60,350 bases of DNA. Origin: an uncultured Candidatus Saccharibacteria bacterium. GTDB lineage: Bacteria; Patescibacteriota; Minisyncoccia; Phycocordibacterales; UBA5272. This document shows, piece after piece, positions 5,578 through 54,014 of the stretch. The stretch lies in assembly GCA_964577675.1 (NCBI GenBank), contig CAZNZQ010000002.1, positions 1-60,350 of the forward strand, written 5' to 3'. Numbering within the stretch: the stretch's first letter is position 1; each line of letters begins with the position of its first letter. The position numbers were made by a program, and so were the translations under genes. The notes under the pieces are model-generated. The model was not told the origin of the DNA, did no database searches, and saw nothing but the letters and a program-made list of their open reading frames with translations.

Positions 5578-5605
5578 TAGCTCGCCGGTTACATTAGGCG
5601 AGCTA
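5578..5605 (-). terminator. Hairpin terminator for the minus-strand ORF 5603-5968
   Basis: A 9-bp stem, tagctcgcc/ggcgagcta. A T-run follows only on the minus strand (plus-strand A5 at 5571-5575). Confidence 0.5.
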
Positions 5606-5968
5606 GCGAGCAGACGAGTCCGGGTGGAGCTTTATAAGAATGACTGCCGTTAACTTGTCGTGCGAATAACGCAGCAGTTCTCGAAGAGATCGGGTGTCGA
5701 TGTTGGCAAGCGTTTCAACCGAGCTCACTCGGTATGAAGCTAACTTCCTTCGAATATCTGCGTTTAGTCCAAGCATGGCAAGCGGCGTACAGACGTTATG
5801 TTTCCGGCCGAGACTGCTTGCATAGAGCTTAGTCTCTCGGACGGCCTTTCTCCATGTGACGAGAGCTTTTTGAGCGGCTTCGCCCTCCGGTGTTGGCAGT
5901 TGTTTCAAGAACCTTTCTACCTTGATGAGCCTCAAGATATACCCTCTTCGCCCTATTCTTTTTGTCAT
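5603..5968 (-). CDS. Small basic protein with a helix-hairpin-helix (RpoA-CTD-like) C-terminal half, hypothetical
   Basis: GGAGG SD lies 6 nt upstream of the ATG. LGLNADIRRKLASYRVSSVETLANIDTRSLRELL resembles the HhH pattern seen in this window's own rpoA CTD. The sample line (5821-5880) counts 31/60 G+C. Confidence 0.45.
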   Translation of the reverse strand: MTKRIGRRGYILRLIKVERFLKQLPTPEGEAAQKALVTWRKAVRETKLYASSLGRKHNVCTPLAMLGLNADIRRKLASYRVSSVETLANIDTRSLRELLRYSHDKLTAVILIKLHPDSSAR

Positions 5969-6054: not shown

Positions 6055-7191
6055 ATGTCAGACAAATACACAGCCACCTGGGTATCTCACTCCTCAATGG
6101 GGGACTATCTCAAATGCCCGAGACTTTATTATCTTCACAATGTTTACAAAGACCCAAAAACAGGACGCAAGATGACCACTGTCTCTCCCTATATGTCGCT
6201 CGGTATCGCGGTGCATAATGTGGTAGAAGGCCTAGGAGATTATCCGTCAGAGGAGAGAATGAACCGAGACCTTCAAGCTTGGTTTGATGAAGAGTGGGAA
6301 AAAGTGAGCGGCAAGAAAGGTGGCTTTATGAGTGATGAAGAAGAGAAGCTTTTTAGAGAGAGAGGTAAGAAAATGATAGATACAGTTGTAAGCAATCCAA
6401 GATTTTTGCTCAACAAGCGTATTAAGCTTCCGAGGAATGAGATGCCATGCAACTTTTATCTTTCAGAGGATGACAACATCATATTAAATGGTTTAGTTGA
6501 CTGGATTGAGTACTTACCGGACCTGCCTGTGCCGCGCCCCGGACAGTTTTGTGTATACGTTCTTAAGTGTTCAGATGGTTCTTTTTATATAGGACAAACT
6601 GAGAATTACGAAAAACGTTTAAAAGAACATGAAAGTGGTCAAGGAGCAGAATGGACAAAGAACCATCTACCTTTTGAGTCAATTCACTGGGAGGTTTTTA
6701 ATACAAGAGATGAAGCAATAAAGAGGGAGAGTGATTTGAAAACTGGATTTGGCCGCAAGTGGCTCAAAAGGGAATACGACAGACAGGGCTTAGCGCGGCA
6801 GGCAGGTGACACGCTACATATTATCGACTTTAAGACAGGTAAGAACGAGGAAAAGGAGTCATCGCTACAGATGCCGATATATCTTCTTCTTTGTAATGCT
6901 CTTCAGAAGAGAAAGGTATCAAAAGCAAGCTATTGGTATCTCGAGACAGACACATTAACAGATAAGGAGCTTCCTTCGTACGAGGATGCTTACAAAGCTG
7001 TATATGATGTTGCGATACAGGTGAAGCGTGCGCGCGACGAGAAGAGCTTTGACTGCCCAAAAGGGGAAGCCGGGTGTATCCATTGCAGACCCTATGAGGA
7101 TATCCTTCGTTTTAAGAAGGGAGAAGATGTCCCGGTAGAATATATCGGTGTAGGTGGTTTTAATCAGGACGTCTATCTTTTTGTAAAGTAA
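6055..7191 (+). CDS. Cas4/AddB-like PD-(D/E)XK nuclease with Cys cluster, carrying an embedded GIY-YIG domain
   Basis: N-terminal YLKCPRLYY plus C-terminal CPKGEAGCIHC form a Cas4/AddB-type 4-Cys pattern. Catalytic motifs are GLVDWIEY ... IIDFKTGK ... QMPIYLL. Residues about 157-251 are a UPF0213-like GIY-YIG domain (VYVLKCSDGSFYIGQT..RLKEH). Confidence 0.8.
   Translation: MSDKYTATWVSHSSMGDYLKCPRLYYLHNVYKDPKTGRKMTTVSPYMSLGIAVHNVVEGLGDYPSEERMNRDLQAWFDEEWEKVSGKKGGFMSDEEEKLFRERGKKMIDTVVSNPRFLLNKRIKLPRNEMPCNFYLSEDDNIILNGLVDWIEYLPDLPVPRPGQFCVYVLKCSDGSFYIGQTENYEKRLKEHESGQGAEWTKNHLPFESIHWEVFNTRDEAIKRESDLKTGFGRKWLKREYDRQGLARQAGDTLHIIDFKTGKNEEKESSLQMPIYLLLCNALQKRKVSKASYWYLETDTLTDKELPSYEDAYKAVYDVAIQVKRARDEKSFDCPKGEAGCIHCRPYEDILRFKKGEDVPVEYIGVGGFNQDVYLFVK
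6522..6806 (+). mobile_element. 285-bp in-frame GIY-YIG module bounded by GC-rich inverted repeats
   Basis: The left arm is cctgcctgTGccgcgc (6522-6537). The right arm is gcgcggcaggcagg (6793-6806), whose reverse complement is cctgcctgccgcgc. All 14 nt pair, with a 2-nt bulge. The length is 95 codons exactly. Confidence 0.45.
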
Positions 7192-8895: not shown

Positions 8896-8926
8896 AAGGT
8901 CTTAATTGCTTATCAATAAAGACAAC

Positions 8927-8952
8927 GGCCGTGATGGGTAAGCATCACGGCC
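8927..8952. terminator. 10-bp GC-rich hairpin at the edge of the 8.9-9.4 kb GC-rich island
   Basis: The sequence is ggccgtgatg-ggtaag-catcacggcc. Only a weak T-tract follows on the minus strand. Confidence 0.4.
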
Positions 8953-9263
8953 GGATGCTTCCCACTCTACAGTCAGAGCTGGGAGTGTTTGGATGGTTCT
9001 CCGTCGTCGCCAAAGATTAATCTGCGCGACGAGCCGAAGAAGATGCTTCCAGGAACGTCCGCATCCCCTCCATTCCTGTGCTCGACAAAACGGCATTCGA
9101 CCTTCCCGCTCTCAAGCGTTCGATCTCGATGCGGTGTGATCCAGAGAGAAGAAGTGTCAACTTCTCGTCCACGTGTCCTCTGAGGTCCACTTCTTGATTT
9201 TCTGCTGCGAAGTGGTCGTGACTTGCTTCAGCAAAGAAAAGGTGATGGGCGGTGAAATATCTG

Positions 9264-9395
9264 CTATTCGAACCTTTCTTCTCTGCGAAGAGTAAAGACT
9301 TCGCTCTCCTTGATGTTGGCGATACTCTGAACGCCAAGCAGTTGAGAGACCCGTGTTGTAAGCGCGGTGTTTAATGGTGATGGATTCAGGTGCAT
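9264..9395 (-). CDS. 43-aa SD-led ORF in a GC-rich island, possible HTH fragment
   Basis: AGGAG lies 5 nt upstream of the ATG (complement of 9393-9395). The product is MHLNPSPLNTALTTRVSQLLGVQSIANIKESEVFTLRREERFE. The rest of the island has only frame-broken ORFs. Confidence 0.2.
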   Translation of the reverse strand: MHLNPSPLNTALTTRVSQLLGVQSIANIKESEVFTLRREERFE

Positions 9396-9598
9396 GACAG
9401 CTCCTACCAGTTCCAGAATTCTCTTTTGAATTAGAACGAGAGTGTATTCTATAATCTATGGCAAAAAATTAAAGAAAAGAAAATACGACCGTTCTAATTG
9501 AGGCCGTGCTGCGGGGTTGGACAACCTTTAAATACTACATACTATCTCATCTCTTGTAAAGAGATACCACTTTACTCTGTACGTGTTAGAATACGCAC

Positions 9599-52943: not shown

Positions 52944-54014
52944 ATGCTTGCGCTTGACCCATTTAAGGTGCTTTTGCCCGCGGTACTATCTTTTATAATC
53001 GGTGTTATTGTGGCTCCTATGGTTGGAAGGTTTTTAGTTCGCCATCAGCTTTGGAAGAAGAAAAATGTTTCAAAAACAATTGATGGGAAGGAGGCAACGA
53101 TAACAGCTGCACTGCAAAATGATGAGCAGCGTCCCGCTCCTCGTCTGGGGCGCATAGTGGGCTGGGCGGCTGTCTTTGCAACTGCGCTCTTACTTTGGTC
53201 CATATCAAAAGTCTATCCAACTGTTTTTACAGAAAAACTTGATTTTATTTCTCGTAATCAGACGTGGCTTCCGCTATTTGCAATGTTGGTAGGGGCGCTT
53301 GTTGGAGGACTAGATGACCTTCTCGTTGTCAAGGCTTTCGGTAGTAATCTCAATTCATATATTGGAGGGGGACTTTCTTTCCCAGTGAGACTTCTCGCTG
53401 TTTCTTCACTCGGTCTTTTTGCAGGATGGTGGTTTTACTTTAAGCTTGGAGTAGACACAGTACATATACCTTTTTATGGAGACTTCCAGATGGGCGGACT
53501 GCTTTTTATTTTATTTTTTATTATTGTTACCCTGGCCACCTTTTCGACCGGTGTTATTGATGGGGTCGATGGTCTTTCCGGAGGTGTTATGTCTGCGGTG
53601 TTTACTGCGTATGGCATGATTGCATATCTTCATGGTCAGGTGGACATAGCCACCCTTTGCTTTGTTATTGTTGGGGGGATAATGGCGTTCCTCTGGTTCA
53701 ATATCCCGCCAGCAATGTTTTATCTTACAGAGACTGGAATGCTTGCGCTATCACTGTCTCTTTCTGTAATTGCGTTTCTAACAGATGCAGTGATGTATCT
53801 TCCAATCATTGCGTTCCCGCTCCTTGTTACAACAGCCTCTGTGATTCTCCAACTCTTTTGGAAGAGAGTATTCAAGAAGAAGCTATTCTTGGTGGCTCCA
53901 CTTCATCATCATTTCCAAGCTAAGGGGTGGCCTGCATATAAGGTGGCGATGAGATATTGGATAGTCTCATATATGTGCGCGATACTTGGTGTGGTTACAG
54001 TTCTCATTAGCTAG
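52944..54014 (+). CDS. mraY: Phospho-N-acetylmuramoyl-pentapeptide transferase
   Basis: Contains GGLDDLL, DGVDGLSGG and APLHHHFQAKGW. Confidence 0.9.
   Translation: MLALDPFKVLLPAVLSFIIGVIVAPMVGRFLVRHQLWKKKNVSKTIDGKEATITAALQNDEQRPAPRLGRIVGWAAVFATALLLWSISKVYPTVFTEKLDFISRNQTWLPLFAMLVGALVGGLDDLLVVKAFGSNLNSYIGGGLSFPVRLLAVSSLGLFAGWWFYFKLGVDTVHIPFYGDFQMGGLLFILFFIIVTLATFSTGVIDGVDGLSGGVMSAVFTAYGMIAYLHGQVDIATLCFVIVGGIMAFLWFNIPPAMFYLTETGMLALSLSLSVIAFLTDAVMYLPIIAFPLLVTTASVILQLFWKRVFKKKLFLVAPLHHHFQAKGWPAYKVAMRYWIVSYMCAILGVVTVLIS

Follow-up and report, generated by a model that had tools for sequence, protein, structure and literature searches.

The stretch analyzed here, the first 60,350 nucleotides (nt) of contig CAZNZQ010000002.1 (assembly GCA_964577675.1) from an uncultured Candidatus Saccharibacteria bacterium and from here on called the window, contains a gene for a Cas4/AddB-like PD-(D/E)XK nuclease. 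Within this gene, positions 6522-6806 form an in-frame element of 285 nt that is bounded by inverted repeats and encodes a second nuclease domain, of the GIY-YIG type. In our view there is about a 75% chance that this element is a mobile, in-frame, unspliced nuclease cassette that belongs to a widespread family.

The product of the host open reading frame (ORF) is a protein of 378 amino acids (aa), or 283 aa once the element is removed. PDDEXK_1 (PF12705) is found in it by Pfam at E 6e-20, matched in two stretches, and the residues D149, D258, K260, Q272 and Y276, which make up the D...(D/E)xK...QxxxY motifs, are invariant in an alignment of 91 host homologues. One N-terminal cysteine (C21) and three C-terminal cysteines (C334, C341 and C344) are invariant in the same alignment, a four-cysteine pattern that is predicted to hold an iron–sulfur (Fe-S) cluster. 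The element lacks start and stop codons of its own and begins at codon position 3. In an alignment of 12 modules the residues Y12, Y22, G24, R32, H36 and E69 of the GIY-YIG domain are invariant, among them the tyrosines of the GIY and YIG motifs and the Arg, His and Glu, and this branch of the GIY-YIG proteins has its own LKTGFGRKWLKRE motif. Among solved structures, those closest to the domain belong to BH0048 and EF2693, two free-standing UPF0213 proteins (PDB 1zg2 and 1ywl; E ~1e-13), followed by Slx1.

The structure of the 378-aa protein was predicted with AlphaFold2 (AF2). A first run on 12 sequences was poor (predicted local distance difference test score, pLDDT, of 63) and was replaced by a run on the 91-sequence alignment; a MAFFT alignment of a mixed set of host orthologues and module-only proteins was misaligned and was discarded. 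The resulting model has a mean pLDDT of 87.4 and a predicted template modelling score (pTM) of 0.74, with a host core at or above 90 and with the two linkers as its lowest-confidence parts. Along the chain, a strand at 150-154 is followed by the GIY-YIG domain at 165-242 and then by a strand at 253-260. In this model the element splits the hairpin between the strand of the catalytic Asp149 and the strand of D258-x-K260. Foldseek aligned the model to the Cas4-family ACE1 over ~350-374 columns (364 in one account) with a target of 266-269 residues, an alignment that is longer than the target itself and that therefore spans the insert. Further matches of the host fold were AdnAB, Dna2 and AddAB, and the insert on its own matched UPF0213 (1zg2, 1ywl) and Slx1.

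The two arms of the inverted repeat pair at 14/14 positions with a 2-nt bulge. A 285-nt frame was slid along the window and its two 16-nt ends were scored; over all 60,065 positions the pairing of these arms, at -27.4 kcal/mol, was the strongest (mean -4.3 +/- 2.6). The GC content is 81-86% in the arms, 39% in the interior of the element and 43% in the rest of the gene. No other copy of the element was found in the window, where the arms are unique and a weak tblastn match (9457-9516, E 0.15) is mere noise. At the 285-nt spacing, the inverted repeat that ranks second, at 53648-53663 and 53917-53932 (AGCCACCCTTTGCTT and AAGCTAAGGGGTGGC, -22.4 kcal/mol), is located within an intact mraY-like ORF and has probably arisen by chance.

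An initial annotation of this stretch, made from the letters alone, had described a 378-aa PD-(D/E)XK nuclease with four cysteines, an in-frame UPF0213-type GIY-YIG domain of 95 codons placed between the first Asp strand and the D-F-K strand, and GC-rich repeats that stand out from the gene. These claims are confirmed by the Pfam matches and the invariant motif residues, by the two solved UPF0213 structures, by the AF2 secondary structure and by the pairing scan. Its suggestion that the nuclease core might close around an extruded domain is also in line with the model, in which a confident Cas4-like core is aligned across the insert and a UPF0213-like domain stands apart.

Table 1. Features of the element and of its host locus in the window, and short hairpin derivatives at other loci.
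Feature	Position	Strand	Basis
Putative mobile element, 285 nt, 95 codons, in the host frame	6522-6806	+	Absent in 117/120 best orthologues; filled versus empty DNA alignment; synteny break versus L004
Left terminal inverted repeat, CCTGCCTG-TG-CCGCGC, encodes (D)LPVPR	6522-6537	+	Synonymous positions nearly invariant in 60 copies
Right terminal inverted repeat, GCGCGG-CAGGCAGG (= GCGCGGCAGGCAGG), encodes ARQAG	6793-6806	+	Pairs with the left arm in the minimum free energy and centroid RNA folds
GIY-YIG catalytic core, aa 165-232, UPF0213/Slx1-like branch	6547-6750	+	Pfam PF01541, E 2e-14
GA, bases 1 and 2 of the Asp codon that the insertion splits; third base at 6807	6520-6521	+	Empty alleles L003 and L004
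Host gene, Cas4/AddB-like PD-(D/E)XK nuclease	6055-7191	+	ORF list, Pfam PF12705, 91-sequence alignment, Foldseek
Codon of the catalytic Asp149, strand just 5' of the insertion	6499-6501	+	Invariant in 91 homologues; strand 150-154 in the model
D258-F-K260 ((D/E)xK) motif, strand just 3' of the insertion	6826-6834	+	D258 and K260 invariant; strand 253-260 in the model
UvrD-type helicase with C-terminal PD-(D/E)XK nuclease, AddA/AdnB-like, 1113 aa	2230-5571	+	Pfam UvrD-helicase, UvrD_C, PDDEXK_1
Mini hairpins CCTGCCTG...CAGGCAGG	L005 1189-1227, 3397-3414; L047 3524-3559, 6716-6778, 6899-6937		In frame in ORFs
Mini hairpins CCTGCCTG...CAGGCAGG	L149 2116-2649; L177 8775-9398; many others		In frame in ORFs

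The comparison of alleles with and without the element was based on the best 120 homologues of the host protein. In 117 of these the 95 codons are absent and the protein, of ~283 aa, has the PD-(D/E)XK domain only; the GIY-YIG module is present in three, at the same site, namely the window's own protein (P0001), P0002 and P0003. Conceptual removal of the element gives ...DWIEYLPDDTLHIIDFKTGK, and the closest relatives, P0004 (92% identical) and P0005 (91%), read ...DWIEYLPDDTLHIVDFKTGK and ...DWIEYLADDTLHIVDFKTGK, both with a length of 283 aa (378 - 95). The excision junction that had been foreseen in the initial annotation is thus the one that is seen in these two proteins and in the empty alleles. 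In the DNA, the sequence of the empty alleles is CCGGAC^GACAC (L003) and GCAGAT^GACAC (L004), the filled allele reads CCGGA-CCTGCCTG...CAGGCAGG-TGACAC, and the empty-site sequence across the insertion point (^) is ...TACCTNCCGGAT^GACAC.... No target-site duplication was found: in filled versus empty alleles the insertion lies cleanly between GA and T/C, and the flanks of the family show no direct repeat. The boundary is ambiguous by 1 nt, as 6523-6807 fits an empty GAC^GAC and 6522-6806 fits an empty GA^T GAC; the latter is the one that fits all other family members. The insert-free contig L004 has the gene order of the window (UvrD-type helicase-nuclease, small divergent ORF, nuclease, 195-aa ORF, SpoU methylase and rhodanese) and aligns with it on both sides of the element, with a break of the alignment between 6512 and 6802.

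One could ask if the insert is an artefact of assembly or annotation, such as a chimeric contig or a mis-joined repeat, as the window and most of its relatives come from metagenome assemblies, where repeats can mis-join. The filled allele was found in three independent assemblies with normal divergence, the frame is kept on both sides, and hundreds of copies occur in independent genomes, isolates and closed chromosomes included. We regard an artefact as hardly credible.

The divergence of the insert can also be set against that of its surroundings. Between the window and L001 the inserts share 84.9% nt identity, with a synonymous divergence (dS) of 0.68 and a ratio of nonsynonymous to synonymous divergence (dN/dS) of 0.115, whereas the flanks share 64.7% with a saturated dS. 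L001 and L002 are congruent, with 81% identity in the insert and in the flanks. The dN/dS of the insert ranges over 0.06-0.12, which indicates purifying selection. Many insert-free orthologues are closer to the host gene of the window than P0002 and P0003 are, and therefore the filled alleles do not form a host clade. Judged by these divergences, the insert is younger than the host gene. Its sporadic presence at one conserved host site, together with a divergence below that of its flanks, is the pattern by which homing endonuclease genes are recognized.

The element is not confined to this nuclease gene. In a scan of one genome per GTDB species, at least 571 copies were confirmed by tblastn in many phyla, among them WOR-3, Bacteroidota, Desulfobacterota, Verrucomicrobiota, Nitrospirota, Patescibacteria, Planctomycetota, Gammaproteobacteria, Actinomycetes, Spirochaetes and Omnitrophota. 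A few carriers are isolate genomes (Pleomorphovibrio, Sinomicrobium, Tangfeifania), and closed chromosomes are found among them too (e.g., those of Desulfosarcina, Methylomarinum and gammaproteobacteria). The frame that holds the module is free of stops for hundreds of codons at almost all loci. An exhaustive HMMER search of 1.84 billion representatives gave 543 cluster representatives at E <= 1e-10, and the best 150 of these are nearly all embedded in proteins of 100-1100 aa. With the 95-aa module alone as the query, the matches were short proteins and fragments in which the module is always framed by ..D^LPAPRP... and ...ARQAG^.. (^ marking here the element boundary), in HsdM, HsdS, HsdR, DUF899, DUF1156-type methylases and a helicase-like protein. 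Pfam analysis of 116 representatives identified HsdS as the host in 66; other hosts are DUF1156, HSDR_N, pseudouridine synthase, trigger factor, QueC, TrmD, arginyl-tRNA synthetase (ArgRS), MsrB, NUDIX, TfoX, DUF559 and others. Most hosts are thus HsdS, HsdM, HsdR and DUF1156 methylases, with housekeeping genes among the rest, and at least 25 unrelated insertion sites and host families were found. The initial annotation had raised the possibility of further copies of the repeat plus GIY-YIG unit, inside other ORFs or free-standing; they exist inside many other ORFs, and nearly all copies are embedded. An internal control is given by the HsdS of L026, where the repeat ...GKLVPQDPNDEPASVLLERI... 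is present once empty and once filled in one protein, the filled repeat reading ...GKLVPQDPND^LPAP...RQAG^EPASVLLETI.... A search of IMG/VR for carriage by phages gave only two distant matches, with 37-45% identity, so phages are no obvious vector.

In the HsdR of Bacteroidales and related bacteria (L043, L058, L059, L062, L065, L071, L072, L074, L076, L078 and L079) an intact GIY-YIG domain is located at one fixed site, ~245 aa from the N-terminus, and the terminal repeats are lost or decayed. These copies may be an older insertion that was fixed or domesticated.

The range of hosts bears on a different view of the locus, namely an old and stable domain fusion, in which GIY-YIG would serve the repair enzyme, and also restriction-modification (R-M) subunits, as a second functional nuclease that was passed on vertically and has disappeared from most lineages. 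Purifying selection on the module with its catalytic residues intact would agree with such a fusion, as would the DNA-processing function of many hosts and the single, repeat-free site in the Bacteroidales HsdR copies. It is largely refuted by the closest syntenic orthologues, which lack precisely the insert, and by the age of the insert, which is far younger than its flanks. The same unit, bounded by the same terminal inverted repeats (TIRs), is also present in unrelated proteins, including ArgRS, TrmD and trigger factor. We consider an old fusion very improbable.

The family element can be described as a GIY-YIG cassette of 93-103 codons without a start codon, a stop codon or a promoter of its own. 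Its end consensus, CCTGCCTG-CG-CCGCG...CGCGG-CAGGCAGG, forms 8 + 5 bp with a 2-nt bulge and is conserved in ~140 copies. The inverted repeat is thus not peculiar to the copy in the window; by comparison of these copies it is the conserved terminus of the whole element family. The fourfold-degenerate third positions are saturated across the nuclease core (entropy 1.6-2.0 bits), while at the left end the terminal codons are CTG in 56/58, CCT in 54/60, GCG in 53/59 and CCG in 48/56 copies, and at the right end GCG in 28/28, CGG in 57/59, CAG in 58/58 and GCA in 53/60. Since these codons are near-invariant at synonymous sites, the ends are conserved as nucleic acid and not as peptide. Conservation of this kind cannot be explained by protein function, and it is a further argument against an old fusion. 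In three HsdS N-termini (P0121-P0123) a variant left end without the 2-nt bulge was seen (CCTGCCTGCCGCGCC), with a different insertion phase and with termini that are read in another frame (..GACLPRR.. and ..ASRRRQ^VEFKELGEV).

The position of the element in the reading frame follows a rule. In 65 copies that were ascertained by protein search, and in which the element was defined as CCTGCCTG...CAGGCAGG, the length is a multiple of three in 64 (most commonly 282, 297 or 285 nt) and, measured from the left end, the phase of the nuclease frame never varies. To be free of the bias of a protein search, metagenomes were scanned with the TIRs only (CCTGCCTGCGCCGCG N240-270 CGCGGCAGGCAGG), and 80 of the more than 120 matches were read. 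The length is a multiple of three in 79 of these 80 copies, and in 78 the canonical frame contains no stop; beyond the element the frame stays open for a median of 237 codons on the upstream side and 81 on the downstream side. The outcome without selection is seen in two decayed copies, L112 and L127. GA precedes the element in 63/80 copies and NG follows it in 66/80. The target logo is ..CCNGA^NG.., with G at -2 in 53/60, A at -1 in 47/60 and G at +2 in 45/60 copies, and the split codon is Asp in 37/60 and otherwise Gly, Asn or Glu. Taken together, the data show a discrete DNA unit with conserved ends, which is placed in phase and in sense orientation and which spreads horizontally as an exact unit. 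The earlier proposal of a self-contained cassette that entered the host gene without breaking its frame is supported by its presence and absence at a syntenic site and by the in-frame copies of the family; the repeat is conserved in other copies, and the catalytic residues of the GIY-YIG domain are invariant.

The frame rule also bears on whether the segment is taken out after transcription or translation. It could be an intervening sequence, either a new type of intron that is excised via the terminal stem or a non-canonical intein, with a mature protein that lacks the 95 residues. The terminal stem, which is formed in both the minimum free energy (MFE) and the centroid folds, would bring the exon ends together, and the location, in a catalytic hairpin here and in essential genes elsewhere, is one where an insertion could be expected to do harm. 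Yet a spliced segment would have no need to be a multiple of three, stop-free and in sense orientation, as 78-79 of the 80 copies are, and as the cassette has no start codon its nuclease could come only from an unspliced message. Rfam gave no match at the gathering threshold or at E <= 1, and the fold of the whole element is no better than that of shuffled sequences (z = -0.77). The features of group I or group II introns were not found either, as there is no Rfam ribozyme match and the 285 nt are wholly coding in the host frame. At the protein level, Pfam detected no Hint/intein domain at E <= 0.01; the element starts with Leu-Pro and ends with Ala-Gly, with Asp as the next residue, and so offers no splicing nucleophiles. 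We find an intervening sequence quite improbable, and the initial annotation, which had seen neither an intein nor an intron-borne homing endonuclease at this place, is upheld in this respect. Translational bypass was tried as another candidate and was rejected: GAC take-off and landing codons flank the element here, and not in other hosts (e.g., GAC ... GCA TGG in HsdM).

Evidence for movement comes from pairs of elements in different samples with homologous flanks. The elements of L126 and L140 differ at 0/282 positions with flanks that are 87.7% identical, those of L094 and L152 at 0/282 with flanks at 84.2%, and those of L141 and L157 at 6/282 with flanks at 85.0%. The mismatches in the flanks start 3-9 nt from the element ends, which indicates that the transferred unit is the element from TIR to TIR and that a co-conversion tract is practically absent. 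Between different genes, the highest identity of two copies is ~80%, and modules in unrelated hosts share 75-80% identity. In the module tree the three copies from the AddB-like gene are nested within an HsdR-resident clade, the HsdM, HsdR and DUF1156 copies each occur in several clades, so that host types are interleaved, and L017 and L044, two copies of one metagenome-assembled genome (MAG), are distant from each other. Based on these pairs and on the tree, the element seems to move often between alleles of one gene and to enter new genes rarely, though repeatedly.

A further class of sequences shares the ends without the nuclease. In 1.4 Mb of fetched loci, 71 short hairpins with the same terminal octamers were found (e.g., CCTGCCTGCCGAAGCANCGGCGCAGGCAGG), against a chance expectation of ~0.05 as estimated from the octamer frequency. 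These TIR-only hairpins, or minis, have sizes of 18-69 nt, and the length is a multiple of three in 61/71 (30, 33, 36 or 39 nt), the exceptions coming mostly from one compound, nested locus. Most of them lie in long stop-free frames and encode LPA..AQAG, and often several are found beside a full element in one gene; because they are palindromic, they read similarly on either strand. Tandem or nested elements were seen in P0193, P0153 and L005 (~1520-1540), where a right end abuts a left end (..RQAG^LPAPRP.., CAGGCAGG^CCTGCCTG), and one HsdS protein has two modules. A second type of hairpin, CCTGTCTGCGTGCGGACACGCACAGGCAGG (..TCLRADTHRQA..), is nested in or located beside the main type in L047 (6716-6778), L200 (8355-8399), L204 (1262-1306) and P0129, and suggests that several related hairpin families exist.

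A scheme that fits these data is that the host ribosome reads through the element and that the nuclease is made as a domain looped out of the host protein; it can be translated only as part of the host, since the cassette has no start codon. The host protein would keep its frame and, probably, its fold. The segment would be removed neither as RNA nor as protein, and the host enzyme would presumably still work. The GIY-YIG domain would drive the spread, with the conserved ends serving as its binding site or as a hairpin substrate, by which the minis would be mobilized in trans. As to how the spread takes place, we tentatively prefer site-faithful homing, in which the GIY-YIG domain would cut empty alleles at the insertion point and repair would copy the element in, with a filled allele as the template. 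The lack of co-conversion would be explained if the cut falls precisely on the insertion site. We disfavor heteroduplex-loop repair as the driving force, as the donor flanks would be expected to co-convert, yet the mismatches begin close to the ends.

The other option is a true DNA transposon. In this case the GIY-YIG domain would recognize the TIRs, excise or copy the unit and insert it at GA^NG, and only sense, in-phase insertions in tolerant loops would survive; the repeated insertions at the same site would then reflect a survivorship filter. TIRs that are conserved in sequence beyond pairing alone, the transfer of an exact unit without co-converted flanks, the number of unrelated sites and host families, the short target motif, the identity among modules of different host genes, and TIR-only derivatives that resemble miniature inverted-repeat transposable elements (MITEs), often several per gene, would all be expected of a transposon. 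What does not fit is the lack of a target-site duplication, the occurrence, among the copies compared, of near-identical elements at homologous sites only and never at two different sites, and the distance in the module tree between the two copies of one MAG. No transposase of a known class (DDE, HUH, Ser or Tyr recombinase) is encoded, the sole coding capacity being the 95-aa GIY-YIG domain. A transposon is a candidate that we find rather unlikely.

Several observations weigh against the view of the element as a mobile, unspliced nuclease cassette, or make its mechanism harder to picture. The nuclease activity, the substrate and the retention in the mature protein are all inferred from sequence, and the insert is modelled less confidently than the host, with a pLDDT of 65-89, as three sequences cover it. 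A GIY-YIG domain of 95 aa without a DNA-binding domain, 75-80% identical across hosts, is hard to square with sequence-specific recognition of at least 25 different empty sites, which makes classical homing uncomfortable. Classical transposition is uncomfortable too, as GIY-YIG enzymes are hydrolases and, to our knowledge, none catalyzes strand transfer. The near-identical pairs give no example of a recent jump between genes. Finally, past the 13 conserved base pairs the inner arms are only weakly complementary: for the next 18 nt inward, cognate and non-cognate arms differ by just -1.6 kcal (p = 0.004, 60% of copies), and a selected extended stem was rejected on this account as too weak.

The invariant ends, the minis and the Slx1-like ancestry together suggest that the enzyme recognizes the terminal stem and not the host sequence. 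This leads to a purely hypothetical version of homing that would be self-guided and directed by structure. The nuclease would bind the invariant stem, and the choice of site would be independent of protein recognition of host sequence; in the transcript or in single-stranded DNA, the stem would bring together the host sequences on its two sides, and these flanks would pick the matching empty allele. Such self-guided homing would account together for site fidelity in at least 25 unrelated genes, for movement as an exact unit, for the sense orientation and for the minis. The element would then stand for a new class of mobile element, a hairpin-ended 'coding parasite' with a 95-aa GIY-YIG nuclease, produced by read-through of the host ORF, as its sole gene, an idea that we offer as speculation and consider rather unlikely to be right in this form.

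Some parts of this picture have counterparts in the literature. In the HsdR protein MCA0838 of Methylococcus capsulatus a single GIY-YIG insertion was judged to be recent and perhaps indicative of a molecular parasite (Dunin-Horkawicz, Feder & Bujnicki 2006, PMC1564403). We consider it very probable that this insertion and the present family are one phenomenon. It was described as a unique domain insertion, without terminal repeats, boundaries, a family, an in-frame rule, minis or other hosts (PMC1564403). The ShiLan domain is a homing insertion element in DNA methylase genes of actinophages (Arsenault, Gosselin & Gogarten 2025, PMC11855218). According to the abstract and section list of that paper, it shares with the present element a sporadic and actively spreading distribution, a stop-free passage in the host frame, the lack of intein or intron features, a predicted loop-out and a nuclease that is carried along; terminal inverted repeats or minis are absent from that abstract and section list. 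Its nuclease, as far as these parts tell, is an HNH enzyme that is read in a different frame, from a GTG start to a TAA stop of its own (PMC11855218), whereas the GIY-YIG domain here lies in the host frame without either. ShiLan is found in phages, whereas the present family is nearly absent from IMG/VR.

Other systems resemble the element in behavior or in fold. Inteins with homing endonucleases are likewise in-frame parasites of conserved sites in DNA metabolism, sporadic, horizontally transferred and translated with their host; the present element differs by the lack of a Hint domain and of nucleophiles, by its inverted repeats at the DNA level and, presumably, by staying in the mature protein. 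In both sequence and fold, the encoded domain is most closely related to the UPF0213/YhbQ proteins (1zg2, 1ywl) and to Slx1, a structure-specific nuclease. UPF0213/YhbQ are free-standing genes for ~90-107 aa and Slx1 is a subunit of eukaryotic complexes, whereas the present module is embedded through the linkers LPAPRP and ARQAG, which are encoded by the repeats. Rickettsia palindromic elements (RPEs), reportedly described by Ogata and colleagues in 2000, are in-frame palindromic repeats that are tolerated within ORFs. Like these and like intragenic MITE-like repeats, the minis (18-69 nt, LPA..AQAG) behave as in-frame peptide insertions, and the full element follows this rule as well. We know of no autonomous partner or enzyme for the RPEs, whereas the present minis share their termini with an autonomous, nuclease-encoding member; the likeness drawn here is one of behavior. 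The IS200/IS605 and REP/RAYT systems also have hairpin ends, no target duplication, a short target motif alongside and abundant hairpin derivatives without the enzyme. They differ in that they use an HUH Y1 transposase on single-stranded DNA and are intergenic or disrupt genes, with no in-frame constraint.

Full-text searches of the literature found no description of the family, with subscription-only papers outside their reach, so that a prior description is possible. What appears to be new is the combination of conserved ends that form hairpins, a nuclease in the host frame that lacks both start and stop, the absence of a target duplication, minis, and a spread across phyla and hosts. There is a real chance that this selfish, homing-nuclease-like in-frame insertion represents a categorically new class of mobile element. 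If the reading as a mobile, unspliced cassette is true, many proteins of bacteria and of the candidate phyla radiation (CPR) carry a living, unspliced parasite in their polypeptide chain, and a third solution, beside introns and inteins, exists for residing in a gene without killing it. The family would also provide an autonomous, enzyme-encoding partner for in-frame palindromic repeats, of which the RPE type has posed the question of its mobilization since 2000, and GIY-YIG would join the enzymes that define prokaryotic mobile elements. For annotation, it would mean that GIY-YIG 'domains' in HsdS, HsdM, HsdR, DUF1156 methylases, repair nucleases, ArgRS and TrmD are insertions and not functional architectures, and that the insertion points map permissive loops of the host proteins. 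A 95-aa nuclease that recognizes a 13-bp hairpin end could also become a compact tool.

The genes around the host nuclease give this insertion a context. The UvrD-type helicase-nuclease upstream, the order of which is kept in L004, is likely the partner of the host nuclease, and the pair looks like a minimal end-processing system of the AddAB/AdnAB type. For the organism, an element that splits the catalytic hairpin of the nuclease of this AddA-like partner raises the question of whether end processing still works. Further downstream, ~700 nt between the rhodanese gene and mreB (8900-9590) contain only short, unconvincing ORFs and no Rfam match; at this place L004 has a DUF4407 gene, of which tblastn found no trace in the window. 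A divergent ORF of 121 aa (5603-5968, minus strand), without a Pfam match, lies beside the nuclease gene and occupies the same place in L001-L004.

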